Below are positions 4,301 to 51,971 of a DNA stretch of 51,971 nucleotides, piece by piece. Numbering within the stretch: position 1 is the stretch's first letter; each line of letters opens with the position of its first letter. A model generated the notes under the pieces. The model did no database searches. It was not told the origin of the DNA and worked only from the letters and a program-made list of their open reading frames with translations. Source of the DNA: Chiloscyllium plagiosum (lineage: Eukaryota); contig NC_057755.1 in the NCBI RefSeq assembly GCF_004010195.1, forward strand, positions 10,892,680 to 10,944,650, read 5' to 3'. Made by a program: the position numbers and the translations under genes.

Positions 4301-4706
4301 GCACCACTGTTTCTGCTTTCAGCCCTGAAATTGGAAAGCCCCATCGGTGTGCTGTCGACTTGGTGGTAGATCTGAAATTGGAGACAAAGTGGTGGTGAAG
4401 CATTAATCTAGTCGCTCGAAGAGTTCGCCCCTAAGATTGTACGATTCTGGGTAACTTCAAGTTTTGACAATAATTTGCAATGCCTACTTGTGGTTTTTGA
4501 CACAGTGGTAGCGTCCCCACCTCTGGGCCAAGTCCCACCTGCACCCTAAATGTGTCATGACACGTCTATACAGGCTGATTAGAAAGTTCTAAGTTACTTC
4601 TTATTTTACGGACGAATAGATGCTGAATAACCTTTACAGCAGCTCATCACAGTGTCAGCAAATTTCACTTTTAATGTGAGAAGAAAAAGTTTATTCTCTC
4701 CTACAG

Positions 4707-4818
4707 GAATTCCCTCAGCTCAGATCTAAGTTAAATATAAAAATATGCCAAACCAGACTGATATCAGCGTTAGTTACAACGCGTCAAAGCCCAGCACGTA
4801 CTTTCCTTTGAAAGAATG
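4707..4818 (+). other. Candidate upstream exon of the GVIN locus (mirror copy 51639-51751, -)
   Basis: TTTATTCTCTCCTACAG acceptor and TG|GTGAGG donor in non-TE sequence; both sites are conserved in both arms. Confidence 0.4.
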
Positions 4819-5158
4819 GTGAGGATTATTCAGCTCGAAAGTGATACTCAGCAGCAAGATAAGTTTAAAAAATAAAAGTTCCCACTGGATAGAACTAGAA
4901 AAGAAGTTAAAAAGTAGGTCATAGTTTGCAACTCAAGCAAGGAATCTCACAGACAGAGCTGCTTTTGTGAGTGTGTTCCCCTCCCTCTATCTCTTGATCT
5001 AAACAGAGTACCGCTGGCATGGTAAACTGCTCATATAACATCTGCCTGGCAACAGACACGTCGAAAGTTCCGATTGGACAAAGTTTCAAGACGGGTTTCA
5101 GCACTTTATGGTTCTGCCGCAGTTGTGCTGTTCAGTCACTTTCCAGACTTACTTTCAG

Positions 5159-5283
5159 GAGCTGCAGCTTCAGACCGGGTCAGGAAATCGAGAGATTTGA
5201 TTTTACTTGAAGAAGATCTGAAAGTTAAGCTTCTAAATTGGAGTAAGGCCAATGGTAACACTAACAGGCCAGAACTTTCAGAA
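5159..5283 (+). other. Candidate upstream exon of the GVIN locus (mirror copy 51174-51298, -)
   Basis: CACTTTCCAGACTTACTTTCAG acceptor. The donor is GTAAGT in the left arm and GTGAGT in the right arm, both consensus. Confidence 0.45.
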
Positions 5284-5364
5284 GTAAGTTGGGAGAGACA
5301 ATCTCCAGGTAAGGACACACTGGAAAGTGGAGCACCCTTTCCAAAGCGAGATGAGAGTGCAAAG

Positions 5365-6940
5365 ACCGTTATGTTCCTGTTTGTGTGAAGGGCAAGGCTG
5401 GTAGGGGTAAGGAGCGCTGGACGGCTGGAGAAAATGAGTCTCTGGTCAAGAGAACGAAGGAGGCATATTGTCAGGTAGAGACAGCTGGGATCTAGAGAAA
5501 AGTAGAAAGAAGAGATACTCGAGAGAAATCAGGAGGGCAGCAAGAAATCAGGAGATTGCTTTGGCAAATAGGGTTAAGGAGAATCCATAGGGATTTTGCA
5601 TTAAGGGCAAAAGGGTGACGGGGGAGAGAATAGGGCGTCTCAAAGATCAGCAAGGACATCTATGTGTGCAACTGCAGAAAATGAGTACAATACTAATGAG
5701 TATTTTGCATCAGTATTCACTATGGAGAAAGGCGTGGAATCTAGAGAACTTGGGAAATAAATAGTGACATCTTGAACAGTGTCCATATTGCAGAGTAGAT
5801 GGTACTGAACGCATTAAAACGTAGAAGGGTTGATAAACCCCCAGGATCAGCGCAGGAGTGCCATAGAACTCTGTGGGAAGCGAGGGAAGGGATTATTGGG
5901 CCTCTTGCTGAGATATTCTGATCATTAATAGTCACAAGTGATATGCCAGAAGCCTGGAGTTTGGTTACCATAGCGCCACTGTTTAAGAAAGGTGGCAAGG
6001 AAAGGCCATGGAACTGTAGACCCGTGAGCCTGACAACAGTGGTGGGCACGTTGTTGGAGGGAATCCTGAGGGATAGAATTTACACATATTTGAATATCAA
6101 AAATATCATAGACTCACGATCGAGTGGAAACAGGCCATTTGGCACAACAGTTCCAACCGACCCTCCAAAGACAAAATCCACCCAGACCCAATCTCGCAAT
6201 TTGATGGATTTTTATGACGAAGTGACAAAGAGATTGATAAGGGTAGAGTGATGGACATCATCTGCATTGACATCAGCAAGGAATTTGACAAGGTTCCACA
6301 TGGTAAACTGGTTGGCAAGTTAATAATTGGTGAAGTCCATGGAGAGCTAGACATTTGGATACACAATGTCCTGACAGGAGGAGACAGAGGGTAATAGTGG
6401 AGGGTTGCGTTTTAGACTGGAGGCCTGTGACCAAGGGTGTGCCACAAGGATCGGCGTTGAGTCCACTACTTTTTATCATTCAGAAAAATAATTTGGGTGT
6501 GGACATAGGAGGTATAGTTAGTAAATTTGCAGATGACACCAAATTTGGAGGTGTAGTAGACAGCAAACAAGGTGACCATCCTTTTGGGAGACCAAATTAG
6601 GTCAGTATTAGGCAGGAGCTCGAGAATGGTAATTGGGTGCAGCTGTTATCTGGCAAGTCCAATATGATATGTGTCAGTTGTTTAAAGGTCTACTGATCAG
6701 AGTTCAGGGCCAGCATGTTTTAGTAAGGAGGAAGGACAAAAATGGCAAGGTAAAGGACCGTGGAGAATGAGGGAGGTTGGGACTTTTGTCAAAAGGAGAC
6801 AAGAAGCGTATGTAAAGTTTAGGAAGCTGAAATGAGATGAGGTCTGCGAGGGAAACAAAGAAAATAGGGAAAAAAAAACTCAGGCAGGGAATTAGGAGAG
6901 CAAGAAGGGTCCATGAAATGACCTTGGCAAGTGGGATCAT
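5365..6940 (+). mobile_element. CR1/HER1 LINE ORF2 fragments (mirror 49580-51095, -)
   Basis: [28 protein letters not shown] and KFADDTK RT motifs with frameshifts. A short antisense SINE/LINE tail is inserted near 6105-6195. Confidence 0.85.
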
Positions 6941-7324
6941 AATGTTAAAAGATTAATGGGAATATCTCTCTGGACATTCATGTAATATTAAATGGTTGAA
7001 CTGCACTGAGTGAACATTGTGGAGGTGGGTAGGGACGATAGTCAGGCAGGAATGCAAACGACTCCCACCCCTTTTAGACAGTTATTTACCACTAAAACCC
7101 TCCTCTAATCAAATTAAACACTCATTCAGTGCCTTTCATTCAGAATGTATAGCTTTCTAGCCATCGACTGAAGGATGCGATGGCGAGAATACACCAAAAC
7201 TACATTGTCTTAGAAAATCACTGAGTCAGGAAATCGTCTGCAGAACGATTCCCCAGGATTAGGGCATTTTCATTTGCATTATCTCCGAGGATGACCTCAT
7301 CCTGCCAGCGTACCTGGGATAACA

Positions 7325-7530
7325 TGTGATTGGTGACAGTAGAGTCACCAGTAGAGGTAGAGTCGGGGTTTGTGCTGAGTTACAAGTGATTGTGAGGGAA
7401 TGTTTGGGGGTTGTGTTGAGTGATATGTGACTGTGGGAAGGTGCTGAGATTTGTCTTCAGTAGCATGTGACTATGGTGAAGTGGCTGGGGGTTGTGTTGA
7501 GTGGCATGTGTCAGTGCGGGAGTGGCCAGA
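7325..7530. repeat. Short degenerate tandem repeat (GGGTTGTGTTGAGTGACATGTGACTGTG-like)
   Basis: Several imperfect units, with a shorter mirrored version at 47440-47530. Confidence 0.55.
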
Positions 7531-7769
7531 TGATCTGTGTACACTTCCAACTGACCTGCATAAAGGGGATGTGCTTACTTTGTTTGGAACCTCACTTTGA
7601 ATTGATCTCGCATGCCTGTTGGGGGTGGGGTATGTGGCGGGGGTCAAATGGGGTCACCTAGATTGTACAGACTTTGATAAACTTTAACTGTTTGCAGAGG
7701 TTGGTGTGAACAAAGTGCATCTCGCGCAAGGAACATCGCAAAAAGAACCTAACAGGATTAAAGAGAATC

Positions 7770-8185
7770 CCAACACCTTCTGTACACACATTAGAAAGAA
7801 GAGGACAACTATGGAGAGGTAGGACCACTCAAGGATAAAGAGGGAACTTCTGCTTGGAAACAAAGGATGTGGGCGAGTTCCTTATTGAATACTCTGCATA
7901 GGAATTCACCCAGGAGAGAGGTACAGATGAGAATGAGATTAGTGTGGAGCATTCTAATAAGCTCGGGCATTTTGAGATCAAGAAAGAAGTGGTGTTTGGT
8001 CCTTGAAGAGCAATAAAGATGATAAGCAGTAAGTGACTGATGGTATCTACCCCAGGTTATTGAGCGAGGCCAGAGAAGAGGTTGCAGGAACCTTGACCAA
8101 GATCTTTGTATCCTCACTAGCCATGTGGGTAGGTTCCAGATGACTGACCAATCTTTTGTTGAAGAAGGGAAATAGGGATCATCCA
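7770..8185 (+). mobile_element. CR1-like LINE ORF2 fragment
   Basis: IKENP..F..IR.KR...ERVGPLKDK remnant, homologous to 44510-44940. Confidence 0.7.
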
Positions 8186-8199
8186 GTTAAATAAAAAGC

Positions 8200-8920
8200 T
8201 TGTTTCTGCTGTAAATCTGAAACATAAACAAACATTGTTGGAGAAACTCAGCAGGTCTAGCAGCAGCTCTGGAGAGAAAGAATTTGTCAATATTTAGAGT
8301 CCAGTGACCCTTCTTCAGACCTGACTGTAGCTGGGAAAATGTTGGTATAAACACTGAAGATGGGGTTGGAGAAGGGAGTTATCAGACGGATTAAACAATC
8401 GGTGAAAACCGAGACCAAAGAGAGAAAGCAGTAGTTGGGTAGACAAATGGATGGATAAGGGTGAGTCGCAGGAAAAAGAGCTGTTCATAGGAACTGATAG
8501 TGGTTGACAATGGCTCACAATGTGATGACAAGGACTGAGGTGTGTGGGAGTGTGGGGGAAGGACATGGAAGAAGGTGTTCAGACTCTAAAATTATTGAAC
8601 ACGATATTGAGTACTGAAGGCTATTGGGTCCCCAACGAGAAAGTGATGTGCTGTTCTTTCAGTTTGTATTGAGCTTCGCTAAGGCACTGCAGCAAGACTG
8701 AGTCAGAGATGTTGGCCAGGGAACAGAGTGGGGCACCTGGAAGTTCAGGGTCAGTTTTGAGGACAGAACATAAGTGTTCTTCAAAGTGGTCACCCAGTTT
8801 CAGTTTCATCACCCCAGTGTAGAGGAGACCACTCTGTGAGCAGCAAATACAATAGACCAGACTCAGTGAAGTACAAGGAACTGGTTGCTTCACCTGGAAG
8901 GTATGTCTGGCATTAGCAGA
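8200..8920 (-). mobile_element. Penelope-like GIY-YIG/pLTR fragment
   Basis: ORF 8621-8998 reads HTFQVKQ..CTSLSLVYCICCSQSGLLYTG. A degenerate hammerhead lies at 8291-8320. Confidence 0.8.
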
Positions 8921-8924
8921 AGGA

Positions 8925-10021
8925 GTGCTCCCTAATGTCTGAACTGTCCCCATCCTGCACCAGCCTCCTCTGCTTGAGCTCATCCACAGATTGAACAACT
9001 TTAATTTCTCCCCTTTTCTTTCTGGCAGAGCCTTTCACTTGGGTCCCAGTTTTGCCTGTTCTTTGTGGGGCACGTGGAATATTTTTTTCCTATCCTGGAG
9101 ACCACCCACAACCCTTTCTCCACTACGTTGGTCGATGTTGCTTCCCTCACCTATTTGGAATTGGGGAAGTTTATCAATTTTTCCTCCAATTTCCAGCCCC
9201 CCTTACTTCCACCTGGTCCAAATGAAACCTTTTTTCCCTTCCTCAAAATCTCTGTTTCCATTTCCTATGGATAGGCTGGCCAATATCCATAACAAACCCA
9301 TCAACTCTCAGAGTCATCTTGACTATACGTCCTCGCAGCCTGCTCTCATAAAGGCTCTATCTCATTTCTCGGTCTCCGTCACATCCGTTTGATTGGTGCT
9401 AACATTGACCACGGGCCTGGAAACGTCCACCTTCTTCCTCAAAGGAGAAATCGCGAGTGCGATGGTAGACAAGGCCCCCAGCCGCATCTGCCACATCGTC
9501 TGCACTTCTTCCCTTGCCCTTGCCTTCCCTCCCATAACAATGATCGTGTGCCCCTAGTCCTCACCTGCCATCCTACCAGCACCCATATCCATAGGATTAT
9601 TGACTGCCATTATTGCCATCTCTAGTCGGGTGCCCCCACCAGACTGTGGAGACCTTTCCCTCCGGGACACACTGGTCCACTCCTCCTTAAGTCCCAACAT
9701 CATCTTACTTTGCAATTGTTCTTTCCCACGAAATGTCAGAAGATATAACACTTGCCAGTTTACCTCCTCCCTCCAAGTGCACAAACATACCTTCCAGGTG
9801 AAGCAGCCATTTACCTGCACTTCTCATAATCTAGTCCATTGTATTCACTTCTCACAGAGTGGTACCTGATACACGAGAGAGACGATACACAGACTGGGTG
9901 ACCGCTTTGCAGAAGACGAACATTCTGTCCTCAGAAATGACCCTGAGCTTCCATTTGCCTGCCACTTCAACACATAATCTTGTTCCCTGACAAACATCTC
10001 TGACGCAGGCTTGCTGAAGTG
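8925..10021 (+). mobile_element. Penelope-like RT/GIY-YIG fragment
   Basis: SHLDYTSS, DRVPLVLTCHPT and HTFQVKQPFTCTSHNLVHCI motifs; cut off at 10021 by an LTR. Confidence 0.8.
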
Positions 10022-11165
10022 TGTTACGGAACAGATCAAAGCCCCTCAAAATATATTCAGAACATCGTTTAGATTTGAATGTTTTAATATTGGAAAGGTA
10101 AGCATAAAGTGTTGTGTTGCAGTTGCAATTCGATTTGTCCAACAACCAGATTAGAAGCAAAACAACGTTTATTCAGGCACAGTAGTTAACATACAATGAA
10201 GAAAACAATAATAATTTGATTAGTTGTAACTCTATTGAAATGCTTAACAAAACAATACACATATAAACTAAAACTAATTACATTTCTAATATCGTGAATC
10301 CATAATCACACACTTGGCAAAAGATGAGTTTAGAAAAATAAGTCATCTCACAGGAAATTCTCCAGTCTCAGAAGAAAACAAATTCAAGAGAAAACTCACA
10401 GGGAGAGAGAGAGAGTAGCAGGGAGAGATATCCTGCAGCTTCCAAACCCAGCTTCAAGACATCAGCAACTGTTACTGAGAAACTAAAGTTAAAATCCTGG
10501 CCTGACCCCACCCATTCAGGCTGCTTCTATTGTTCCAATGTTTAAGGTCTCCAAGGCCTCACAGAGCTGACTACTTAAAGGCATTCAATTGACAGCTGTC
10601 TGATCACCTCTCTTCAAAACAAAATAGCACAATACAGGCCTCTTAAAGCTACGGTATTGACAAACTGCCCCCTCAACAGAAAGAAGCACCAATATACAAA
10701 GATGGCTTGTCACCATGTCAACATGTCACCAATTATGTTCTCTTGTCCTGCCATGTCCATTATTGAATGGCTGTAATAAAAAAACCCATCTAAACAGTCT
10801 GGAGTGTTTTCCCATAAATATTTCCAAAATCTTTAAGGGGTTATGATCAGTATATGCATTTGTCTCAGACACATGACTGGGAACAGAAATGTTGAAATGT
10901 TGCAACACCAACACCAAGCTCAAAGTCACCTTCTCATTCATGGAATATTTCTATTGATGATTATTCGATTTTCTGTAAGAATATATAATTGGTATTTCGG
11001 TCTTTTCGTCTTCCTGCAATAGTACAGCACCGACACTGACGTCACTTGCATCAACAGCCACCTTGAATGGCTTTGTGTAATTGGGAGTGGCTAACACAGC
11101 TCACAGCGTGTCAAATGCCTTCTGACAGTCTGCTATCCACTGAAATTTCCTGTACTTCTTCAACA
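10022..11165 (-). mobile_element. Ty3/Gypsy LTR retrotransposon 3' remnant (RNase H, PPT, LTR ~10022-10662), Gmr1-like
   Basis: Minus strand reads PNYTKPFKVAVDASDVSVGAVLLQE and YTDHNPL...RLFRW.LLQPF. A purine-rich tract GAGGGGGCAG precedes TG at 10662; AATAAA is near 10170; the terminal CA is at 10022. Confidence 0.75.
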
Positions 11166-12055
11166 ACCATTCACAGTGTTCATGGCTCTTCAGACGCTGA
11201 GGCAGTCCATGCTGAAATACAAGAAGTTTTGGAGAGTATTCAGGCTTGGGCTGAAAATTGGTTATGAACTTTCACGCCACACAAATGCCAAGGTTATGAC
11301 CATCTCCAATAAAAGACAATCTAGCTCCCACCCCTTGCCATTCAATGGTGTTACCAACACTGACTCCCACACTGTCAGAGACTGGGATTTATTATTGATC
11401 AGAAACTCACCTGGACTCACCCCATAAACACATTGGTTACAAAGGCAGGACAGAGGCTGGGAATACTGGGGTGAGTAACACACCTTCTGATTCCTCAAAG
11501 ACTGTCCACCATCTGCAAGACACAAGTCAGGAGTATGATGGATTTCTCCTCACTTGGCTGGATGGGTGTGGCTCCAACAACACCCAAGAAGCACAACACC
11601 ATCAAGGACAAAGCAGCACCCGCTTGATTGGCATCACATCCATAATCATCCACTCCCTGCACCACCGACGCTCGGTAGCAGCAGTGTGTACCATCTGCAA
11701 GATGTACTGCAGACATTTGCCAGTGATTCTCAAACGACACCTCCCATAGCCATTATCACTTCCATCTCGAAGGACAAAGGAAGCAGGTACTTGGGAACAC
11801 CACCGCCTTCAAGTTCCCCTCCAAGCCAATCATCACCCTGACTTGGAAATGTATCGCTGTTCCTTTGCTTTTGTTGGGTGAAATTCCTGGCCTTCCCTTC
11901 GTAAAGGAATTGTGGGTCAACTCTGAGCAGGTGGACTGCAGCGGTTCAAGAAGGCAGCTCATCGTCACCTTCTCAAAGGGGGTAACTAGGGACGGGTAAT
12001 AAATGGTGGGCCAGGCAGTGACACCTACATCCGACAGATGAATAAATGAATAATA
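11165..12055 (+). mobile_element. LINE 3' portion (CR1/L2 group) sharing its tail with the SacSINE1-like SINE
   Basis: Decayed RT C-terminus (LESIQAWAENW; HSLHHRRSVAAVCTICKM). The tail GGGTAATAAATGGTGGGCCAGGCAGTGACACC matches the reverse complement of about 14095-14145. Confidence 0.75.
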
Positions 12056-12623
12056 GGCAGTGGTAGAAACACATTGCCAAAGTTCATTACAAATTTCCAA
12101 TAAAAACCACTCAGTCCTAGGAATCACAGTACTTCCTTCATTGCTATGGCATGGGTAACTCCCTAATAACATTTGTTGTACATCCTATGTGCCATGTCCA
12201 ATCAGTTGACCCAGGAGCATAACTCGGTTTTCACTTCTGTTTGCGTTGGCCCTTTTGGCCCTTCCCATCACCATCAGCTCTTCTGGTTTTGCCAGGACAC
12301 AATATTTCTGTGTATACAGTCAGATATTGTCAACAGTGACAAGAACAATGTCGAGAAAGTTACTGTATCTGTCAGCGGGAGGCTGCTTAAGTCATCTGCA
12401 TTCACTATGCGGCCTCCCAGATGGTGTTTCAACTGTCATTGTGTGCACTCAGAAAGAGAGCCCATCACAGAATTCGACCTGAATCTATAGGCCGCATTGC
12501 CTTACCCACTCTGGGTAAAAGTATTTTCTCTGTTCCACGTAAACAGCACTGTCAGATAATCCAGCAATTACCTTATTCTTTAGTCTTGGAAATTTGGCTA
12601 GAGCATTTCTAATACGAAATACA

Positions 12624-12872
12624 GGCAGCACGGAGGCTCACTGTTTAACAGCGCCAGGTACCCGGGCAACTGTCTGTGAGAAATTTATGCATTCTCCCCG
12701 TGTCTGCGTGGGATGCCTCCCACAGTCGAAAGATATGCAGGTCAGGGTGAATTGGCCATGGTAAATTGCCCATAATCAGACAGAAATGGGTTTGGGTGGG
12801 TTATGCTGCAGAGGGTCGGTGTGGAATTGTTGGGTTGCAGAGCCTCTTTCCACACTGTAGGTAATCTAATCA
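12624..12872 (+). mobile_element. HE1-type SINE, internally deleted
   Basis: Homologous to 83-399, with a TAATCTAATC tail. Confidence 0.8.
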
Positions 12873-13162
12873 ATTGACTGTAAAATTAGCACTGTTTATT
12901 GAACTGTCCTTGTAAACATATACCAAGTACACTAGGAAGGTGGGTTTTCCATTCCACTTGCCCATGAGCGAATCTGATCACTCCTCATTGTCCATTTTTA
13001 TCTTTCCCAATGTTCCTCCTTTCACTCTCCAGTTTGTTCCTGTCCCTGAAAATAAACCTCAGCTTTCTTTTAAGTTGAACTTTTGCTAATCAGTGCGCTC
13101 ATACTCAAATTCCCCAACTTCCCTCTTTCTGACAGATCTCTCCCATAGGGAGCTTTGCAGAA

Positions 13163-13790
13163 ATGTAGAAAATAGGAACAGGAATAGGCCATTCGGCCCT
13201 TCGAGCCTGCTCCACTATTCAACGTGGTGATGGCTGATCCTCTATCTCCATGTCATCTTCCTGCTCTCGCCACATTACCCCGATACTGTTTGCTAGTAGA
13301 AATCTATTCTTTATTGAGTACCTTGAGAGACTCTGCACCCAAAATCTTGTGTAATAGATGTTCACAACTCTTAGAGAGAAGAAATGTCTCCTCATCTCAG
13401 TCCAAAATGGACTACCTCGCATTCTCCGACTTCACCTCTTGTTCCAGATCGTTCAGCCAGAGAAAACATCACCCCTGCATCCAGTTGATCTAGCCATGGC
13501 AGAATTTTGTATGTTCCAAGAAGGTGCATTCTGATTTTTCTAACCATTGAATCCAAACCCTCATCATAAGACAAAACTTGCTGTCCCAGGAATCAGTCTG
13601 GTGATCTTTCACTGCACGAAGGCAATTTTATGTCTTCTTAATTAAGGATAATATAATTGCAAGCAATCCTCCAGGTATGCTCTCACCAAGGTCTGAACAG
13701 CTGCAGTAAGGCATCCTGCTCCTCTACTCAAACCCTTTTGCAATCATGGCTAATTTGCCATCAAGACGTCTTGCTGCACCCACATGCGTG
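13163..13790 (-). mobile_element. CR1-like LINE 3' fragment
   Basis: Reverse tail ATAGGAACAGGAATAGGCCATTCGGCCC; peptide PFWTEMRRHFFSLRVVN. Confidence 0.75.
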
Positions 13791-14087
13791 TCTGAGATGC
13801 ATTAAATTCCTCTGACAGATTTCCCCAAACAGCGTCATGGACCACAATGTGCCCAAACTTCGCGTATCTCTCCAGGAGAACCCACTTAACCCATCTCAAA
13901 ATATTCCTGGTTCATGGTTGCATTCTATCCCTGATCTCATACAATGCATTAACACCCGATTTCGAAATTCTTTTTGGGAGGTAAGCATCACAAGCTCTTT
14001 TGCAGTTCTGAAGATGATTTAAAAGCACAGCAGAACGTTATCTCTTTCTCTTCTTTCATTCGTTGAATTGGAATTTTAAAAATCCCA

Positions 14088-14426
14088 CATTTTAGGGGTG
14101 TTGGTGTCGCTGGCTAGGCAGCATTTATTACCCATCCCTAATTGCTCAGATGGCAGTTAAGAGTCAACTACCTTGCTGTAGATTTGGAGTCACATGGACA
14201 TACCAGGTAAAGATGGCAGTTTCCTTTCCGAAAGGACATTAGTGAATCAGGTCGGCTTTATTTTCTGACAATTGATTTGTGGTCGTCTTCAGAATCTTAA
14301 TTGTAGATTTTAATTGAATTCAAATCCCACCATCTGCCATGGCAGGACTGAAACCTGGGTCCACAGAATATTACCTGGGTCACTGGATTAACAGCTCAGT
14401 GATAATATAACTATGCCACCACCTCC
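14088..14426 (-). mobile_element. SacSINE1-like DeuSINE (partial duplicate 14949-15092; mirror 40102-40435, +)
   Basis: tRNA-like head GGTGGCATAGT...GGTTTCAGTCC, core CTGATTCACTAATGTCCTTT..GGAAACTGCC..GTGACTCCA, and a LINE-derived tail. Confidence 0.75.
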
Positions 14427-15580
14427 ACAGATGCTTTGAGCATTTCCAGCATTGCCTGTTTATTTAGTATTCCGCATTATTTTGCCTCTACCTTGGGTCC
14501 AAACACAAAGTCAAAAACATGTGTCAACTGAGAAAACTTCAAACTGTACCTTTATAAAACAATATTGAATATTACAAAAACGTATTAGATTTCCCAGAAA
14601 TATTTTGCAGGAATTGAGGAAATCTAGATTGCACAAGCTGATCATTCCATCATTACATTTCAAAAGTGATAGGATTTAATGATGTACCAGATTCTAAATG
14701 TATCGATAGCCATATATAACAGGAAAAGGTTGACACTGTTGAACTGTGAAGATTTCAGTAGGTCTGAAGGTTGGAACTGTGCAATAAAAATGTCGTTTTG
14801 CTTTCTTACTGTTTTAGAAAATTGAAGAATCCATCCATGAGGGGAATGGACAATTTGGGTATTGATAAACATGAGGACTGTACCGAGGAGAATCGAGGAG
14901 AGGAAGCAAGTACCGTGGTCGGCACGGTGGTACAGTGGTGAGCACTGTGTGGTCATCTTTAGAATCTTAATTGTAGATTTTCATTGAATTCAAATCCCAC
15001 CATCTGCCATGGCAGGACTGAAACCTGGGTCCCCAGAATATTACCTGGGTCACTGGATTAACAACTCAGTGATAATATAACTATGCCACCACAGATGCTT
15101 TGAGCATTTCCAGCATTGCCTGTTTATTTAATATTCCGCATTATTTTGCCTTTACCCTGGGTCCAAACACAAAGTCAAAAACATGTGTCAACTGAGAAAA
15201 CTTCAAACTGTACCTTTATAAAACAATATTGAATATTACAGTAACCTAGTAGATTGCCCAGAAGTATTTTGCAGGAATTGTGGAAATCTAGATTGCACAA
15301 GCTGATCATTCCACCATTACATTTCAAAAGTGATAGGATTTAATGATGTACCAGATTCTAAATGTATAGATAACCATATATAACAGGAAAAGGTTGACAC
15401 TGTTGAACTGTGAAGATTTCAGTCGGTCTGAAGGTTGGAACTGTGCAATAAAAATGTCGTTTTGCTTTCTTACTGTTTTAGAAAATTGAAGAATCCATCC
15501 ATGAGGGGAATGGACAATTTGGGTATTGATAAATATGAGGACTGTACTGAGGAGAATCGAGGAGAGGAAGCAAGTACCGA
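14279..15580 (+). repeat. ~670-bp direct tandem duplication covering the splice acceptor and start of copy A
   Basis: 14279-14915 is repeated at 14949-15580. Minus-strand ORFs 14660-14956 and 15324-15812 share almost the same peptide. Confidence 0.9.
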
Positions 15581-22906: not shown

Positions 22907-23216
22907 GATATCTCTCTGGTTCAGGACCCCTCAACTATGGACAAAATCTCACCTACATCTACCCTGTGAAACCCTTAAATATATTCAGTAAAATTACCTC
23001 TTGAGAATACAGGCCCAGTTTGACCAACCACTCTCCAAATGACAGTGCCTCTATCTGAGGGACAAGTCTGGGGTGAAACACTTTTGGAGAGTGGTTGGTC
23101 AAACTAGGCCTATATTCCCAAGAGGTAATTTTATTGAATGTATTTAAGGGTTTCACAGGGTAGATGCAGGTGAGATGTTGTCCACAGTGGAGAAGTCTAT
23201 AACCAGAGGGATATCA
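22907..23216. repeat. Fold-back inverted repeat of CR1 sequence downstream of copy A (arms ~130 bp, loop ~40 bp)
   Basis: GATATCTCTCTGGTT...CTCTCCAAA pairs with TTTGGAGAG...AACCAGAGGGATATC. Confidence 0.85.
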
Positions 23217-24535: not shown

Positions 24536-24539
24536 ATTT

Positions 24540-24802: not shown

Positions 24803-24829
24803 GGGGGGGGGGGGGGGGGGGGGGGGGGC

Positions 24830-40989: not shown

Positions 40990-41325
40990 ATAGAGTCAAA
41001 GAATCATAGAGATGTACAGCACAGAAACAGACCCTTCGGTCTGACCCAATCTAGTCCCACCTGCCAGCACCCGGCCCATATCCCTCTAAACCCTTCCTAT
41101 TCATATACCCAACCAAATGCCTCTTAAATGTTGCAATTGTACCAGCCTCCACCACTCCCTCTGGCAGCTCATTCCATACACGCATCACCCTCTGTATGAA
41201 AACGTTGTCCCGAAGGTCTTTTTACCTATTTATCCGATCCATGCCCCTCATAATTTTGTGAACCTCTATAAGGTAACCCCTCAGCCTCCGATGCTCCAGG
41301 GATAACAGCCCCAGCCTGTTCAGCT
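40990..41325 (-). mobile_element. HER1/CR1 LINE 3' end
   Basis: Reverse complement of 41970-42395 with internal deletions. Confidence 0.8.
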
Positions 41326-41545
41326 TCAAGAGATCTATTCTTTATTGAGTACCTTGAGAGGCTCTTACCCCACAATCTTGTGTAATAGATGTTCACCACT
41401 CCTTGAGAGAAGAAATTTTGCCTCGTCACAGTGCAAAATGGACTACTGTGCACCCTAAGACTTAACCCCTTGTTCAGAATCCTTAAACCAGGGAAAAAAA
41501 ATCATCCCTGTATCCAGTTGATCTCACGCTGGCAGAATTTCACAT

Positions 41546-42395
41546 GTGGTGGAAGGTTGTTTTTGCGACTGGAGGCCTGTGACCAGTGGAGTGCCACAAG
41601 GATCGGCGCTCGACCCTCTACTTTTTGTCATTTGCATAAATGATTTGGATGCGAGCATAAGAGGTAGTTGGTAAGTTTGCAGATGACACCAAAATTGGGG
41701 GTGGAGTGGACAGCGAAGAGGGTTACCTCAGATTACAAGAGGATCTGGACCAGATGGGCCAATGGGCTGAGAAGTGGCAGATGGAGTTTAATTCAGATAA
41801 ATGCGAGGTGCTGCATTTTGGGAAAGCAAATCTTAGCCGGACTTACACACTTAATTGCATGCAATTCTGGTCTCCTTCCTATCGGAAAGATGTTGTGAAA
41901 CTTGAAAGGGTTCAGAAAAGATTTACAAGGATGTTGCCAGGGTTGGAGGATTTGAGCTATAGGGAGAGAATTAACAGGCTGGGGCTGTTTTCCCTGGAGT
42001 GTCGGAGGATGAGAGGTGACCTTAGAGAGGTTTATAAAATCGTGAGGGGCATAGATAAGATAAATAGACAAAGTCTTTTCCCTGGGGTCGGGGTGTCCAG
42101 AACTAGAGGGCATAGGTTTAGGGTGAGAGGGGAAAGATATAAAAGAGATTTAAGGGGCAAATTTTCATTCAGAGGGTGATACGTGTATGGAATGAGCTGC
42201 CAGAGGAAGTGGTGGAGGCTGGTACAATTGCAACATTGAACAGGCATTTGGATGGGTATATGATTAGGAAAGGTTTGGAGGGATATGGGCCGGGTGCTGG
42301 CATGTGGGACTAAATTGGGTTGGGATATCTGGTCGGCATGGACGGGTTGGACCAAAGGGTCTGTTTCCGTACTGTACATCACCAAGACTCTATGA
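41546..42395 (+). mobile_element. HER1/CR1 LINE 3' portion (second copy 45106-45613)
   Basis: ORF 41706-42179 reads WAEKWQMEFNSDKCEVLHFG...LERVQKRFTRM...RRMRGDL; the tail ends GACTCTATGAC. Confidence 0.9.
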
Positions 42396-42414
42396 CAACA
42401 ACCTATAAAGTGCT

Positions 42415-43254
42415 TGTTATGCTACAAGATTCAAAATATGAATGTCTATGGGGAAGAAGCTGCAACTGCTCAAATTGGAACGTTGTACCAAAAACCATTC
42501 AGTTAGCAGGCCCAAGCCGCATTTTTACCCAGAGAACAGTTTAAATTCAGCCAATTATCTCTGAGTGAGGCCACTCAGAGATAAAGGACCAATTAAATTT
42601 AAATCTGAAACCACTCATATGAGAAATTGATGTGTCATGGGGGGTATATAACAGAGGGGCAACTGGACAGAGAAGGGAGAGCAAACAGCGATCTGAGAAA
42701 GAAATACTGAGCTCTCACAAGCAAAACTCCACACTCTCAAAACGGCCTCATCTACCTATAAAAGTACAACTTTCTTGACACCAGAGGCGTTCAGAACAGA
42801 TTAGTTACAGAGAAAGCAACCCTGAGGGTAGTATCAGTGAAGAGGAAGAGGAAGAGGAATGTTCTGGAAGATCCATTCTGTGTGAACTTTGGGGGACTAT
42901 GTTTTAATGTATTGTTTTCTTATTAATTGGATTTATACAAGTGGGACCTATGTTGTTGGAACAGCCTACTCGTAAAATTCGGTTCAGTAAGGGAATAGGT
43001 AGGAGTTAGAAGAGATTTATTCTGTTTGTTAGTAATTAGGTTAATTTATTCACTGTTGGAGTTAAATAAATAAATTGCTCGTTGTTAATTATAAAGTGGG
43101 TGACAGGATTCCATTTCATTTAACCGCTCCTTTCTAACAGATTCGGTGGGAGATCGGTTATACCCCTTGTCACACTATATCAGATTGTGAGACGATCTTT
43201 TCTAAGTGCTTCATTTTTAATCCTCAGAAAAGTATCGACCTCCATGTCATCGCA
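42415..43254 (+). mobile_element. Probable solo LTR (second copy 45633-46468)
   Basis: Starts TGTTATG, has GGGGGTATATAA (TATA) near 42640 and AATAAATAAA near 43066, and ends ...GTCATCGCA (alternative end TAACA at 43139). No clean TSD. Confidence 0.55.
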
Positions 43255-44940
43255 CTCTCCTGCAGCCGCTCCTAAAGCCTGCACATCCTTGCTGTAATGT
43301 GGCGAGCAGAACTGAACATAACACTCTGAATGTTGCCTCACCAAAGGCTTTTAAAGCTGCAACATGACATCTTGACTCTTGTACTCAATCCCCCAACCAG
43401 TAAAGGTAAGCATGCCATACACCTTCTTTACCACCCTATCGACTTGAGTGGCCACCTTCAGGGTGCTATAATATCCCTCTGTCAATCAATGTTGTTCAGG
43501 GTCCTGCCATTAACTGTAAAGTTTTCCTTCCTATTTGATCTCCCAAAGTGCAGCACCTCACATATACCCAGGTTAAACACTATCTGCCGTTTCTCCACCC
43601 ATATCTGCAACAGATCTATATCCCACTGTATCCTTTGATAACACCATCCACAATTCCACCAATCTGTTTATCATTTACAAACTTACTAACCGAGATTTAG
43701 AATTTTTAGATTTTAGATTACATTACAGTGTGGAAACAGGCCCTTCGGCCCAACAAGTCCACACCGACACGCCGAAGCGAAACCCACCCATACTCCTACA
43801 TTTACCCCTTACCTAACACTACGGGCAATTTTTTATGGCCAATTCACCTGACCCTGCACATCTTTGGACTGTGGGAGGAAACCGGAGCACCCGGAGTAAA
43901 CCCACGCAGACACGGGGAGAACGTGCAAACTCCACACAGTCAGTCGCCTGAGGCGGGAATTGAACCCGGATCTCTAGCGCTGTGAGGCAGCAGTGCTAAC
44001 TGCTGCGCCACCGTGCCGCCCACTATCCTAGCTAACCTAGCTATCTATATTTTCATTCGAGTCATTTATATATGTACAAGAAACAGCAGAGGTCCCAGTA
44101 TGGACCCCTGCAGAACACCAATGGGCACAGACCTCCAGCCTGAAACACACTCTTCCACCACCATCCTCTGCCTTCTGTGGGTAAACCAATTCTGAATGCA
44201 TGCAGCCAGGTCACTGTGATTCCAGTGCATTGTAAGCTTCTGGCTGAGCCTACCATGAGGTACCTTGCTGAAAGCCTTACTGAATAGCATACAGACAACA
44301 TCCACTGCTCTACCCTCAATCAACTTTGTCATCTCCTTGAAAAATTCCAGTTAGTGAGATATGACCTGCCGTGCACAAAGCCACGCTGACTGTCCCTAAT
44401 TAGGCCATGCTTTTGCAAATGTGCTTAAATTCTACCCTTAAGAATTCTCTCCAATAGCTCCCCAGCCACCATTGTGAGACTCACCACTCTACAGTGTCCT
44501 GGATGACCCCTATTTCCCTTCTTAAACAAAAGAACAACATTAGCTCCTCAGCAGTTTTCCGGAACCTCCCCAGTGGCTAGTGAGGATACAACGATCTTGG
44601 TCAAGGGCCCTGTAATCTCCTCTCTTGCCTCTCTCGGTAACCTGGGGTGGATACAATCGGGCCCTGGTCACTTATCTAACTGAATGCTCTTCAAGAGACC
44701 CAACACCACTTCTTTCTTGATCTCAAAATGCCCGAGCATATTAGCATGCTTCACACTAATCTCATTGTCATCCCTGTCTCAGTCCTGGGTGAGTACCTAC
44801 ACAGAGTACTCAGTTAGGAATTCACCCACATTCTCTGCCTCCAAGCACAAGCTCCCTCTTTTATCCTTGAGTGGTCCTACCTCTCCCTAGTTATTCTCCT
44901 GTTTCTAATGTGTGTACAGAAGGCCTTGGGATTCTCTTTA
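43255..44940 (-). mobile_element. CR1-like LINE ORF2 fragment (second copy 46469-47445)
   Basis: FSKAFSKVPH..., GVLQGSILGPLLF. Confidence 0.8.
43693..44031 (-). mobile_element. Young HE1-type SINE with CTAACC target-site duplication
   Basis: Very similar to 83-399. The empty site ACTTACTAACCTAGCTATC is at 46895-46913. Confidence 0.92.
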
Positions 44941-47756
44941 TTCCTGTTAGGTTCTTTTCCCAAGGTGTCACACACGAGATGCAATTTGTGCACACCAACT
45001 TCTGCAAACAGTGAAAGTTTATTAAAAGTCTGTACATGCCCAATAGGCGTGTGAAGCCCCAAATAAAGGAAACACATCCCCTTTATACAGTTTGCAATGC
45101 TCACAGAGATGTTGTGAAACTTGAAAGGGTTCAGAAAAGATTTACAAGGATGTTGCCAGGGTTGGAGGATTTGAGCTATAGGGAGAGAATTAACAGGCTG
45201 GGGCTGTTTTCCCTGGAGTGTCGGAGGATGAGAGGTGACCTTAGAGAGGTTTATAAAATCATGAGGGGCATAGATAGGATAAATAGACAAAGTCTTTTCC
45301 CTGGGGTCGGGGTGTCCAGAACTAGAGGGCATAGGTTTAGGGTGAGAGGGGAAAGATATAAAAGAGATTTAAGGGGCAAATTTTCATTCAGAGGGTGATA
45401 CGTGTATGGAATGAGCTGCCAGAGGAAGTGGTGGAGGCTGGTACAATTGCAACATTTAACAGGCATTTGGATGGGTACATGATTAGGAAGGGTTTGGAGG
45501 GATATGGGCCGGGTGCTGGCATGTGGGACGAAATTGGGTTGGGATATCTGGTCGGCATGGACGGGTTGGACCAAAGGGTTTTTTCCGTACTGTACATCAC
45601 CAAGACTCTATGACAACAACCTATAAAGTGCTTGTTATGCTACAAGATTCAAAATATGAATGTCTGTGGGGAAGAAGCTGCAACTGCTCAAATTGGAACA
45701 TTGTACCAAAAACCATTCAGTTAGCAGGCCCAAGCCGCATTTCTACCCAGAGAACAGTTTAAATTCAGCCAATTAACTTAAGAGGCCACTCAGAGATAAA
45801 GGACCAATTAAATTTAAACCTGAAACCACTCATATGAGAAATTGATGTGTCATGGGGGGTATATAACAGAGGGGCAACTGGACAGAGAAGGGAGAGCAAA
45901 CAGCGATCTGAGAAAGAAATACTGAGCTCTCACAAGAAAAACTCCACACTCTCAAAACTGCCTCATCTACCTATAAAAGTACAACTTTCTTGACACCAGA
46001 GGCGTTCAGAACAGATTAGTTACAGAGAAAGCAACCCTGAGGGCAGTATCAGTGGAGAGGAAGAGGAAGAGGAATGTTCTGGAAGATCCATTCTGTGTGA
46101 ACTTTGGGGGACTATGTTTTAATGTATTGTTTTCTTATTAATTGGATTTATATAAGTGGGACCTATGTTGTTGGAACAGCCTACTCGTAAAATTCGGTTC
46201 AGTAAGGGAATAGGTAGGAGTTAGAAGAGATTTATTCTGTTTGTTAGTAATTAGGTTAATTTATTCACTGTTGGAGTTAAATAAATAAATTGTTTGTTGT
46301 TAATTATAAAGTGGGTGACAGGATTCCATTTCATTTAACCCTCCTTTCTAACAGATTCGGTGGGAGATCGGTTATACCCCTTGTCACACTATATCAGATT
46401 GTGAGACGATCTTTTCTAAGTGCTTCATTTTTAATCCTCAGAAAAGTATTGACCTCCATGTCATCGCACTCTCCTGCAGCCGCTCCTAAAGCCTGCACAT
46501 CCTTGCTGTAATGTGGCGAGCAGAACTGAACATAACACTCTGAATGTTGCCTCACCAAAGGCTTTTAAAGCTGCAACATGACATCTTGACTCTTGTACTC
46601 AATCCACCAACCAGTAAAGGTAAGCATGCCATACACCTTCTTTACCACCCTATCGACTTGAGTGGCCACCTTCAGGGTGCTATAATATCCCTCTGTCAAT
46701 CAATGTCGTTCAGGGTCCTGCCATTAACTGTAAAGTTTTCCTTCCTATTTGATCTCCCAAAGTGCAGCGCCTCACACGTACCCAGGTTAAACACTATCTG
46801 CCGTTTCTCCACCCATATCTGCAACGGATCTAAATCCCACTGTATCCTTTGATAACACGATCCACAATTCCACCAATCAGTTTATCATTGACAAACTTAC
46901 TAACCTAGCTATCTATATTTTCATTCGAGTCATTTATATATGTACAAGGAACAGCAGAGGTCCCAGTATGGACCCCTGCAGAACACCCCACTGTGCACAG
47001 ACCTCCAGCCTGAAACACACTCCTCCACCACCATCCTCTGCCTTCTGTGGGTAAACCAATTCTGAATGCACGCAGCCAGGTCACTGTGATTCCAGTGCAT
47101 TGTAAGCTTCTGGCTGAGCCGACCATGAGGAACCTTGCTGAAAGCCTTACTGAATAGCATGCAGACAACATCCACAGCTCTACCTTCAATCAACTTTGTC
47201 ACCTCCTTGACAAATTCCAGTTAGTGAGATATGACCTGCCGTGCACAAAGCCACGCTGACTGTCCCTAATTAGGCCATGCTTTTGCAAATGTGCTTAAAT
47301 TCTACCCTCCAGAATTCTCTCCAATAGCTCCCCAGCCACCATTGTGAGACTCACCACTCTATAGTGTCCTGGATGACCCCTATTTCCCTTCTTAAACAAA
47401 AGAACAACATTAGCTCCTCACCAGATCTCCGGAACCTCCCCAGTGACATGTCACTCAACACAACCCACTGCCCCACCCCCACAGTCACATGCCACTCAAC
47501 ACATCCCCAGCCCCATCCCCACAGTCACATGCCAGGTACACTGGCAGGATGAGGTCATGGCCCGAGATAATGCAAATTAAAATGCGCTAATCCTGGAGAA
47601 TTGTCATGCGGACGATTCCCCAGGACAATGTAGGTGCGATGTGTCCTAGCTTCAAGGGGTGGCCAGAAAGCATTTCTGAATGAATTACAGAATCCCTGGA
47701 TGTCAAATGAACACAGGACGTTGACACGCCTGGGTCAGGCCCGGGACCCACCGTCC

Positions 47757-49097
47757 CTAACCCCGTGTTATCCCTGTCCTGGGAGTGTTTAATAGGAACA
47801 GTGCAGAGGGAGATTTACTCTGAATCTCACCCCGCGCTGTCCATGTCCTGGAGTGTTTAATAGGAACAGTGCAGTGGGAGATTTACTCTGAATCTAACCC
47901 CGCGCTGTCCATCTCCTGGGAGTGTTTAATAGGAACAGTGCAGAGGGAGATTTACTCTGTATCTAACCCCATGCTGTTCCTGTCCTGGGAGTGTTTGATG
48001 TTGAACAATGTAGAGGGAGTTTTACTCTGTATCTTACCCCAAGCTGTCCTTGTCCTGGGAGTGTTCGATGGGACAGTGTAGGGGGATCTTAGCCCTGTAT
48101 TTCAGCATGCGCTGTCGCTTTCCTGGGACTATCTGTTGGGTTTAGTGTCAAGAAATCTTTACTGTGTACCTAACCTTGTGCTATCCCTGTCCTGGTGGTG
48201 TTTGATGGGACAGTGTAGAGGCAGATTTGTCCCTGTCCTGGGAGTGTTTAATAGGAACAGTGCAGAGGGAGATTTACTCTGTACCTAACCCCGCGCTGTC
48301 CATGTCCTGGGAGTGTTTAACAGGAACTGTGCAGAGGGAGATTTACTCTGCATCTAACCCCGCGCTGTCCATGTCCTGGGAGTGTTTAATAGGAACAGTG
48401 CAGAGGGAGATTTACTCTATATCTAACCCCGCGCTGTCCATGTCCTGGAGTGTTTAACAGGAACTGTGCAGAGGGAGATTTACTCTGTATCTAACCCCGC
48501 GCTGTCCATGTCCTGGAGTGTTTAATAGGAACTGTGCAGAGGGAGATTTACTCTGTATCTAACCCCGCGCTGTCCATGTCCTGGCAGTGTTTAATAGGAA
48601 CAGTGCAGAGGGAGTTTTACTCTGAACCTAACCCCGTGCTGTCCCTGTCCTGGGAGTGTTTAATAGGAACAGTGCAGAGGGAGATTTACTCTATATCTAA
48701 CCCCATGCTGTCCCCGTCCTGGGAGTGTTTGATGTTGAACAATGTAGAGGGAGTTTTACTCTGTATCTTACCCCACGCTGTCCCTGTCCTGGGAGTGTTC
48801 GATGGGACAGTGTAGGGGGATCTTAGACCTGTATTTCAGCATGCGCTGTCGCTTTCCTGGGACTATCTGTTGGGTTTCGTGTCAAGAAATCTTTACTGTG
48901 TACCTAACCTTGTGCTGTCCCTGTCCTGGTGGTGTTTGATGGGACAGTGTAGAGGCAGATTTACTCTGTATCTAGCCCCACACTGTCACTATACTGGGCG
49001 TGTTTGGTGGGACAGTAGAGAGGGAGAGATCCTCTGTATTTAATCCCCATGCTGACCCTGTAATGGGTGTGTTTGATGGGACAGTGGAGAGGGAAAT
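47757..49097 (+). repeat. 69-bp minisatellite array, about 19-20 units, with a higher-order repeat
   Basis: Unit CCCCGCGCTGTCCATGTCCTGGGAGTGTTTAATAGGAACAGTGCAGAGGGAGATTTACTCTGTATCTAA, seen as 23-aa periodicity in the ORF track. A block of variant units near 47990 recurs near 48725. Confidence 0.92.
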
Positions 49098-49381
49098 TTT
49101 CCTCGGATGGTGAAGGCTAACATGAGGGGACATAGCTTTAAATTGAGGGGTGATGGCTTTCGGACAGATATCGGGTTAGTTTCTTTACTCAGAGAGTAGT
49201 AAGGGTGTGCAATGGCCTGCCTGCAACAGTAGTAGACTCGCTGACACTAAGGGCAGTGAAATGGGCATTAGACATACACATGGTTAAGAACGGAATGGTG
49301 TCAGTTCGAGGGGATCAGATGAATTTCACAGGTCGGTGCAACATCGAGGGCCGAAGGGCCTGGACTGTACTGTAATGTTGC
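49098..49381 (+). mobile_element. CR1/HER1-type LINE 3' tail abutting the minisatellite
   Basis: RGHSFKLRG...FFTQRVV remnant and a GGGCCGAAGGGCCTG..CTGTACTGTAATGTT tail. Confidence 0.8.
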
Positions 49382-49579
49382 ATGGAAGGCACTAAATGAG
49401 AGTTTAATTTGATAATAGTCAGGGATTAGTAGTAAATGGCTGTCGAAATGGGGTGGGAGCCGTCCGCATTCCTGACTGACTGTCGAACCCAAACACTTCC
49501 ACAATGTTCACTCAGTGCAGTTCAACCCTTTAATATTACAATAATGTCCAGACAGATATTCCCATTTAATTTTTTAACA

Positions 49580-51095
49580 TTACGATCCCACTTGCCAAGA
49601 TCATTTCATGTGCCATTCCTGCTCTCCTAATTCCCTGCATGAGTTTTTTCCTGCTTTCTTTATATCCCTCGCAGGCCCTGTTCGATTTCAGCTTCCAAAA
49701 CCTTACATATGTTTCTTTTCTCCTTTTGACTAAATTCCCAACCTCCCTCAGCCTCCAAGAACCCTTTCCTTGTCACCCTTGTCCTTCCTCCTTACTAGAA
49801 CATGCCGGGCCGAATTCTGATCTGTAGATCTTTAAACAATTCTCACGTGTCAGACTGGACTGGCCAGGTAACAGCTCCTCCCAGTTACCATTCCCTAACG
49901 CCTGCCTAATATTGACCTAATTTGTCTTCCCACAAAGGAGGTAGCCCTCTTCGCTGTCCACTACGCCTCCAATTTTGGTGTTATCTGCAAACTTACTAAC
50001 TGTACCTCTTATGCTTGCATCCAAATCATTTATGTAAATGACAAAAAGTAGAGGAACCAGCACCGATCCTTGTGGCACTCCACTGGTCACAGGCCTCCAG
50101 TGTGAAAAACAGCCCTCCACCACCACCCTCTGTCTTCTACCTTTGAGCCAGTTCTGTACCCAAATGGCGAGTTCTCTCTGTATTCCGTGAGATCTAACAT
50201 TGCTAATCAGTCTCCCATGGGGAACCTTGTCGAGCCTTAATGAAGTCCATATAGATAACAGTTACCACTCTGCCCTCATCAATCTTCTTTGTTACTTCTT
50301 CAAAAAATTCAATCAAGTTTGTGAGACATGATTTCCCACGAACAAAGCCCTGTTGACTATCCCTAATCAGTCCTTGCCTTTCCAAATACATGTACATCCT
50401 GTCCCTCAGGATTCCCTCCAACAACGTACCCACCACAGAGGTCAGGCTCACCGGTCTATAGTTCCCTGGCTTGTCTTTATCGCCCTTCTGAAACAATGGC
50501 ACCACGTTTGCCAACCTCCAGTCTTCCGGCCCATCACCTGTGACTATCGATGATACAAATATCTCAGCAAGAGGCCCAGCAATCACTTCTCTAGCTTCCC
50601 ACAGAGTTCTCGGGTACACCTGATCAGGTCCTGGGGATTTATCCACCTTGATGCGTTTGAATGCGTCCGGTACCGTCTCCTCTGTAATATGGACACTTTG
50701 CAAGATGTCACTATTTATTTCTCTAACTTCCACACCCTTCTCCATAGTGAACACTGATGCAAAATACTCAGTCGTGTTTTTTCTGCAGCACCACACAGTC
50801 CTTGCTGATCTTTGAGGGGCCCTATTCTCTCCCCCGTCACCCTTTTGCCCTTAATGCAAAATCCCTATGGATTCTCCTTAACCCTATTTGCCAAAGCAAT
50901 CTCCTGACTTCTTGCTGCCTTCCTGATTTCTCTCTCGAGTATCTCTTCTTTCTACTTTTCTCTAGATCCCAGCTGTGTCTACCTGACAATATGCTTCCTT
51001 GGTTCTCTTGACCAGAGACTCATTTTCTCCAGCCGTCCAGCGCTCCTTACCCCTACCAGTCTTGCCCTTCACACAAACAGGAACATAACGGTCTT
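49580..51095 (-). mobile_element. CR1/HER1 LINE ORF2 fragments
   Basis: ORFs 50203-50796 (KSPGPD, NYRPVSLTS, GFVRGKSCLTNL) and 49917-50126 ([15 protein letters not shown]). Confidence 0.9.
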
Positions 51096-51971
51096 TGCAC
51101 TCTCATCTCGCTTTGGAAAGGGTGCTCCACTTTCCAGTGTGTCCTTACCTGGAGATTGTCTCTCCCAACTCACTTCTGAAAGATCTGGCCTGTTACTGTT
51201 ACCATTGGCCTGACTCCAATTTAGAAGCTTAACTTTCAGATCTTCTTCAAGTAAAAACAAATCTCCCGATTTCCTGACCCGGTCTGAAGCTGCAGCTCCT
51301 GAAAGTAAGTCTGGAAAGTGACTGAACAGCACAACTGCGGCAGAACCAGAAAGTGCTGAAACCCGTCTTGAAACTTTGTCCAATCAGAACCTTCGACGTT
51401 TCTGTTGCCAGGCAGATGTTATATGAGCAGTTTACCATGCCAGCGGTACTCTGTTTAGATCAAGAGATAGAGGGAGGGGAAATCACTCATAAAAGCAGCT
51501 CTGTCTGTGAGATTCCTTGCTTGAGTTGCAAACTATGACCTACTTTTTAACATCTTTTCTAGTTCTATCCAGTGGGAACTTTTATTTTTTCAACTTATCT
51601 TGCTGCTGAGTATCACTTTGGAGCTGAATAATCCTCACCATTCTTTCAAAGGAAAGTACGTGCTGGGATTTGAAGCGTTGTAACTAACGCTGATATCAGT
51701 CTGGTTTGGCATATTTTTTATATTTAACTTCGATCTGAGCTGAAAGAATTCCTGTAGGAGAGAATAAACTTTTTCTTCCCACACTAAAAGTGAAATTTGC
51801 TGACACTGTGATGAGCTGGTGTAAAGGTTATTCAGCATCGATTTGACTGTAAAATAAGAAGTAACTTAGAAGTTTCTAATCAGTCTCTATAGACGTGTCA
51901 TGACATATTTAGGGTGCAGGTGGGACTTGGCCCAGAGGTGGGGACGCTACCACTGTGTCAAAAACCACAAG

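Follow-up and report, generated by a model that had tools for sequence, protein, structure and literature searches.

The GVINs are described as interferon-induced, single-exon giant GTPases (PMC8286824, PMC6855407), with one giant coding exon in mouse and human (PMC6855407, 10.1101/2025.03.24.645074). The human GVIN open reading frame (ORF) comprises 1,808 amino acids (aa), and human GVIN1, which forms a coat on cytosolic bacteria, is predicted to form dimers via its GTPase domains (10.1101/2025.03.24.645074). The related VLIGs are quoted at 200-285 kDa (PMC8286824). In stickleback, lineage-specific GVIN1 duplicates vary in copy number (PMC4256280, Table 2). Palindromes of mammalian sex chromosomes have arms that are >99% identical and are subject to arm-to-arm conversion (10.1101/800185, PMC8327919).

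The stretch of DNA analysed here, referred to as the window, comprises 51,971 nucleotides from the bamboo shark Chiloscyllium plagiosum (NC_057755.1, assembly GCF_004010195.1). It carries three copies of a GVIN-type GTPase gene, here called A (15501-22301, plus strand), B (24826-27556, plus strand) and C (34995-39694, minus strand). A first-pass annotation had interpreted the window as a birth-and-death cluster of GVIN-type GTPases embedded in a palindrome of at least 47 kb. The cluster is supported by protein domains, by a common clade and by the lesions of individual copies. We consider it likely that the locus is a lineage-specific cluster made up of four or more young paralogs, all belonging to one shark GVIN/URGCP subfamily, in which an old duplication was followed by exchange between copies, the death of A and the shortening of B. 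Since the mirror layout is patchy and the assembly join behind it is unverified, the locus is better described as an ordinary gene-family expansion than as a proven giant palindrome. No paper on shark GVIN clusters was found in the literature searched, in which subscription journals lie mostly outside coverage.

Family membership and relatives

Copy C contains a URGCP_GTPase domain (PF25683; 474.5 bits, cut-off 55), preceded by a URGCP domain (PF25496; 270.7 bits, cut-off 27). The motifs at 637 (GxxxxGKS), 660 and 689 (DTEG) are G1, G2 and G3, respectively. Comparison with the PDB by sequence gave only weak matches, to SEY1 and the GBP2 G-domain. By analogy with other GVINs, C-type copies probably act as GTP-binding, self-assembling proteins of cell-autonomous defence.

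The homologue search scored 7,994 candidates, of which 1,115 passed and the best 120 were listed; 70 of 5,083 shorter candidates also passed. In a FastTree tree of 41 rows that we picked (39 of these 190 matches, together with A and B), A, B, C and two NCBI gene models labelled C. plagiosum, P0002 and P0121, form one clade (Shimodaira-Hasegawa support 100) that is sister to a Scyliorhinus/Mustelus pair; deeper joins carry long-branch warnings. P0002, on a 33-kb contig, is 92-94% identical to the window copies, and P0121, on a 1.9-kb contig, is 93% identical and spans C residues 57-683. A third C. plagiosum model, P0008, is identical to A in its first 211 residues and aligns to B in the remainder, so that the locus is already annotated as GVIN-like. 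This model joins the tail of A to B; there is no AG before the start of B.

The nearest other sharks among the matches listed are Scyliorhinus canicula (P0003, 60%, 1,635 aa) and Mustelus asterias (P0004, 59%, 1,643 aa). Within C. plagiosum, the N-terminal half occurs in four versions (A, C, P0002 and P0121; 90-95% aa identity), and so does the C-terminal half (A, B, C and P0002; 92-95%). The clade and the four versions of each half point to a fast-evolving subfamily that has expanded in this lineage beyond what the assembly resolves. Among the matches listed, proteins of C. punctatum and Hemiscyllium reach only 39-40%, which suggests loss, pseudogenisation or missing annotation of the subfamily in the nearest relatives.

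Coding capacity of copies C and A

Copy C has 1,264 unbroken codons up to a gap of 751 N (35150-35900), followed by 50 codons to the stop, and B has 909; both are features of a single very large coding exon. Assuming a B-like gap, the C protein would be about 1,620 aa long, compared with 1,635 and 1,643 aa for the shark relatives P0003 and P0004. C carries a 36-bp in-frame (12-codon) deletion relative to A, B and P0002. Its frame is open, apart from the 751 N inside it, and C is plausibly functional. The first-pass annotation had counted one intact, one truncated and one dead copy, which fits B (truncated) and A (dead) but goes too far for C, given the N inside its frame. Upstream of C are an intron and a candidate exon (39695-40966, minus strand), with a partner at 13544-14915 that differs at 68 of 1,176 sites. 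In A, this candidate exon of 162 bp (13819-13980, plus strand) is recognised by the look of its splice sites only, and its partner in C, at about 40701-40540, has the donor CT, not GT. The candidate upstream exons had no match to the N-termini of homologues.

Copy A is a GVIN/URGCP-type pseudogene. It has frameshifts at about 15710, 17271, 17638, 17693 and 19681, an internal tandem duplication of about 315 bp (16327-16945), an upstream duplication (14278-15579) by which acceptor and start are present twice, and an insertion of 1,615 bp (20417-22031, plus strand) in its 3' coding part that B lacks at the same site. The URGCP domain of A still scores 253.2 bits (cut-off 27), and the GTPase motifs are kept behind frameshifts. 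Changes specific to A (7 synonymous, 30 non-synonymous) are as expected without selection; the corresponding numbers are 5 and 14 in B, and 9 and 16 in C. The halves of the inner duplication differ by 5.6%, which is above the divergence between A and C, and A could thus be partly a composite of paralogs. Positive selection was considered for the N-terminal part of A and C, where the ratio of non-synonymous to synonymous substitution rates (dN/dS) is 1.80, and rejected (P = 0.31).

The insertion in A is a retroelement fragment that we take to be Penelope-like. Its ORF (20490-21758, 423 open codons) has no Pfam match, and the nearest atlas clusters carry GIY-YIG/RVT_1/HTH_animal at 0.96. Compared with B, about 10 bp of the target are missing at the insertion. 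At the junction of the upstream duplication (14916-14947), about 30 bp resemble the 5' end of a local short interspersed nuclear element (SINE; 26-bp match, 92%) and are possibly filler from template switching.

Origin of copy B

Copy B matches C from residue 692-693 onwards and, after 909 open codons, enters a gap of 205 N. It is without the first 692 codons and hence without the URGCP domain, G1, G2 and most of G3. A run of 26 G (G26; 24803-24828, plus strand), the sole G/C run of at least 10 in the window, forms the junction between the 3' flank of A and the middle of B. The flank before G26 resembles the gene before the break in 26 of 35 columns, with a score of 30 compared with at most 18 elsewhere in the coding strand, and a G-run is also present at the matching place in B's own flank. 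B differs from C at 44 of 1,722 coding and 79 of 2,693 flank sites, and from A at 63 of 1,758 coding and 139 of 2,147 flank sites. As B is nearer to C than to A, it is simpler to assume that a neighbour, once complete, lost its 5' half than that A was recently duplicated. B is probably a sister of C whose 5' half was lost at the G-run. The most likely cause is a template switch, or a deletion, directed by imperfect homology over about 30 bp, in which the nascent strand would have left the flank at the G-run and re-annealed at the homeologous site.

It is rather unlikely that B was never truncated, with its 5' half represented by the unplaced P0121 and the G26 junction being a mis-join. P0121 spans C residues 57-683 and B begins at 692-693; the counts of N- and C-terminal versions match if P0121 and B are one gene; and B has 909 codons without a stop, with a B-C dN/dS of 0.52 (P = 0.041, one of six comparisons, uncorrected). 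Against a mis-join, the junction is located at the best homeologous site of the whole coding strand. Moreover, the G-run at the corresponding position after B is genuine, the junction is without a gap, and P0002 also breaks near residue 683, which may be just a collapse node. Two further origins of the junction were considered and not adopted. G-quadruplex-type deletion removes the G-run and extends 5', whereas at the junction of B the run persists and sequence is lost on the 3' side. Poly-G tails of two-colour sequencing fall at the 3' ends of reads, and the G-run found at the matching place after B argues against this origin for G26.

Near the C-terminus, B (about 27165-27250) encodes a Cys/His cluster (CxxxCPxCxxPC, then His residues) that is conserved in P0003 and P0004, and that in C falls within the gap. 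This cluster is possibly metal-binding.

Inverted similarity between the two halves

The first-pass annotation had described the two halves of the window as reverse complements sharing transposable-element junctions and candidate exons, and had suggested a self dot-plot. Self-comparison shows inverted, collinear similarity of 4487-24709 to 51971-32055, and of 24826-30454 to 37622-32055, which is far beyond chance but patchy. Inverted order, shared repeat junctions (at about 6575/49935 and 7664/45036 in the alignments) and shared candidate exons were thus found as described, but not continuity. In blocks of at least 90% identity, chosen by us from the self-comparison alignments, are 9,512 of 20,223 left-arm bases and 9,364 of 19,166 right-arm bases. 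This well-aligned half of each arm of about 20 kb is 90-98% identical, and other stretches are about 19% diverged or unalignable. Even when dispersed repeats are counted, an inverted partner is present for only 3,662 of the 9,057 bases of 4487-13543 and 3,657 of the 11,005 bases of 40967-51971. Two copies (A and B) stand opposite one (C), the symmetry centres of A-C and B-C lie about 3 kb apart, and B has no mirror of its own. A continuous palindrome of at least 47 kb is therefore not confirmed.

Copies B and C are arranged tail-to-tail around a spacer of about 1.6 kb (30455-32054), as had been proposed, with a 500-N gap included in it. The single-copy part of the spacer (30455-31552) contains one SINE, and its first 107 bp also occur after A. 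The 3' flank of B (27762-30454, plus strand) has its inverted partner at 34766-32055 and is identical to it at 2,614 of 2,693 sites. Both flanks carry 3'-end fragments of a long interspersed nuclear element (LINE) that form a 290-bp inverted pair (86%), at 28098-28389/28625-28914 beside B and at 33613-33902/34139-34430 beside C. In A, about 450 bp between the paired fragments are deleted (22539-23086 joins 23081 onward), as a deletion at an inverted repeat would give.

On the left, 8187-13543 has no inverted partner in the self-comparison save dispersed repeats. Within it, 13298-13507 matches 41329-41540 at 81% in direct orientation, beside the edge of the inverted high-identity block; this is either a small local inversion within the old stratum described below or a repeat. 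The right arm alone has a direct duplication (41888-47445) with units at 41888-44575 and 45107-47445 that differ at 32 of 1,802 and 18 of 544 sites. In this duplication of 2.3 kb (97-98%), a SINE (43695-44031) is found in the first unit only, and the second unit ends in a 41-bp minisatellite that is also present at 7365-7526. A 69-bp minisatellite array of about 1.3 kb (47756-49099) has no left-arm partner. Rfam gave no match in 1017-31552.

Identity strata and proposed exchange between copies

Divergence between the A and C loci is stepped. A block at 4487-5698 (plus strand), comprising a candidate promoter, a candidate non-coding first exon and the start of a CR1-like fragment, has its partner at 50769-51971 (minus strand, reading 51971-50769), which extends to the window edge; 32 of 844 and 8 of 325 sites differ. 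Candidate donors at about 5285 and 5309 are present in both arms, the exon itself being predicted from the sequence. The following old stratum (5699-8186, plus strand) consists of LINE fragments, a 41-bp minisatellite and unique DNA, with partners in order at 50768-49379, 47620-47422 and 45036-44499. Here, 70 of 385, 183 of 923 and 83 of 486 sites differ, corresponding to about 0.22 substitutions per site. Its junctions are common to both arms, and as they are shared between fragments and with unique DNA, we read the old stratum as positional homology from an old duplication. By block, the A and C loci differ by 3.8% (candidate promoter), 2.5% (adjoining LINE piece), 17-20% (next 1.8 kb of aligned sites) and 3.8-5.8% (gene and near flanks). 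The step from 3.4% to 18.6% is located at 5669 (Fisher P = 1.7e-12), inside a LINE fragment, i.e. in sequence that selection should not protect.

The second line of evidence is a tract of 1.8 kb without any difference between B (26478-28307, plus strand) and C (36006-34221, minus strand). All 702 jointly determined bases are identical, the sequences at the gap edges matching exactly over 106, 50 and 546 bp. The gaps are complementary, 923 bases standing opposite 751 N, and 333 opposite 205 N. The tract is the footprint of assembler collapse, in which one sequence was used for two places; B and C were collapsed because they are alike over 1.8 kb. This implies near-identity due to recent conversion or allelism, but not an inverted orientation. 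An exact A-C match of 247 bp lies within the same collapsed piece.

Together, the identity strata and the B-C tract suggest exchange between paralogs, and neither needs an inverted layout. An old segmental duplication would have made the A and C loci, leaving about 0.2 substitutions per site in untouched stretches. Later ectopic gene conversion or unequal recombination would have brought two separate blocks back to a divergence of 3-6%, one being the candidate promoter and the other the gene together with its flanks, and A would have died after this re-homogenisation.

Several observations weigh against this explanation, or against parts of it. Direct tests of mosaicism are mostly negative, with one of four significant (flank runs, P = 0.006) and three not (coding, P = 0.06; protein four-way sites, P = 0.54 and 0.37). 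The old stratum is largely LINE-derived, so that the step could in part have arisen when another LINE copy took the place of the original sequence. The difference in selection between A and B+C is not significant (P = 0.21). P0002 and P0121 are gene models, maybe not from the same animal. Finally, no consensus of the interferon-stimulated response element, the gamma-activated site or NF-kB was found in the 844-bp shared upstream block; this is a weak test, as 0.07-0.54 matches are expected by chance and the promoter is guessed.

Assembly gaps and scaffold orientation

There are four N gaps in the window, at 517-1016 (500 N), 27557-27761 (205 N), 31553-32052 (500 N) and 35150-35900 (751 N). The 205-N gap inside B and the 751-N gap inside C are of estimated size, and the other two are exactly 500 N. 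The first-pass annotation had pointed to the central gap (31553-32052) and cautioned that the right half might be mis-oriented or a second haplotype. That caution stands, and is stronger than first stated. Flanked by two fixed-length joins, the left arm is a single piece of 30.5 kb, and the inverted orientation depends on the central join. Exact B-C matches end at 4 of 4 edges of the inner gaps, compared with 0 of 4 edges of the 500-N gaps, and a gap-edge overlap search found no exact match of at least 20 bp elsewhere in the window for the edges of either 500-N gap. Both 3d-dna and SALSA2 insert 500 N by default, and orientation by Hi-C is trustworthy for long pieces only, short ones being often inverted (PMC9292758, PMC6719893). 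The C. plagiosum assembly appears to have been joined by such Hi-C scaffolding. When the 30.5-kb piece is turned round, A, B and C are all head-to-tail, in tandem. We regard the prospect that the inversion of the arms is real, as assembled across the fixed 500-N join, as falling slightly short of even.

A real large inverted repeat, its arms kept alike by arm-to-arm conversion and most recently over the 1.8-kb tract near the centre, appears unlikely. The order in the assembly is inverted and collinear, identity is stratified, and the most similar copies, B and C, are the two nearest to the centre. In addition, 546 bp are exact, yet beyond 28600 the flank shows 75 differences in about 1,850 sites, a combination with a chance of about 5e-9 even at the lower divergence of 3.5%. 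On the other hand, the exact tracts start at gap edges, as collapse predicts; the arms are only about half alignable, at 80-98% identity; the orientation hangs on the 500-N join of the 30.5-kb piece; and gene conversion occurs in tandem arrays too. Maintenance of a palindrome by arm-to-arm conversion, as proposed in the first-pass annotation, is thus not established.

Slightly less likely again, the halves could be two divergent haplotypes of one locus (one with A and its partial duplicate B, the other with C), or B and C could be alleles, set side by side by scaffolding. B and C have a single sequence version across 1.8 kb, in which their gaps are complementary; the 33-kb and 1.9-kb contigs carry more unplaced pieces of the family; and four versions fit two loci with two alleles each. 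For alleles, however, differences between B and C at 44 of 1,722 coding and 79 of 2,693 flank sites would be very high, as would A-C upstream DNA that is 17-20% diverged or unalignable over 5-9 kb. Sequencing runs also argue against haplotypes. C-type words (35901-41000) are present at a share of 0.61-0.89 in 12 of 24 listed runs, from 8 samples and 3 studies, above a baseline of 38% (1,930 of 5,070 31-mers common to C and A/B) that other paralogs raise. C is thus not private to one assembly, although one holder may be the source sample. None of the runs listed as containing these words was from RNA.

Least likely of the readings considered is a genuine old inverted duplication in which recurrent arm-to-arm conversion selectively keeps the promoter block and gene body alike, whereas the introns have diverged to about 19%. 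The 1.8-kb tract would then be a recent conversion between the two innermost copies, and B, born by template switch at a G-run and kept open as a GTPase-less half-protein, could be a decoy or modulator of the full-length oligomer.

Comparison with known systems

As it stands, the locus is of little wider significance, being a lineage-specific expansion of a family with known copy-number variation at an already annotated place. It also serves as a warning that a "palindrome" can be produced by short-read collapse combined with a scaffold join of fixed length. Were inversion and strata both confirmed, the locus would offer a compact example, from outside the mammals, of an immune GTPase cluster under concerted evolution.

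As assembled, the locus is similar to sex-chromosome palindromes in its inverted gene-bearing arms, small spacer and rearranged centre. Unlike those palindromes, which are continuous and >99% identical, the shark arms are 80-98% identical, half alignable, asymmetric and unverified in orientation. Divergence is 2.5-6% or 17-20% by block, and 2.6-2.9% between B and C, and mirror symmetry over more than 10 kb is interrupted by the extra copy B on one side and the direct duplication on the other.

With the vertebrate GVIN1/VLIG-1 and URGCP-like giant GTPases the locus shares both Pfam domains, which score above their cut-offs in C, and, as in mouse and human GVIN, one giant coding exon. At about 1,620 aa with a B-like gap, C would be shorter than the human ORF of 1,808 aa and would lie below the 200-285 kDa quoted for VLIGs. 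The shark subfamily is fast-evolving, with 35-42% identity to other vertebrate members among the matches listed. P0003 and P0004 belong to the same subfamily, with one listed protein each in S. canicula and M. asterias compared with at least four versions in C. plagiosum. As with GVIN1 in stickleback, these are young duplicates of one family, gained and lost; in contrast to the population data for stickleback, the shark case comes from one fragmented assembly.

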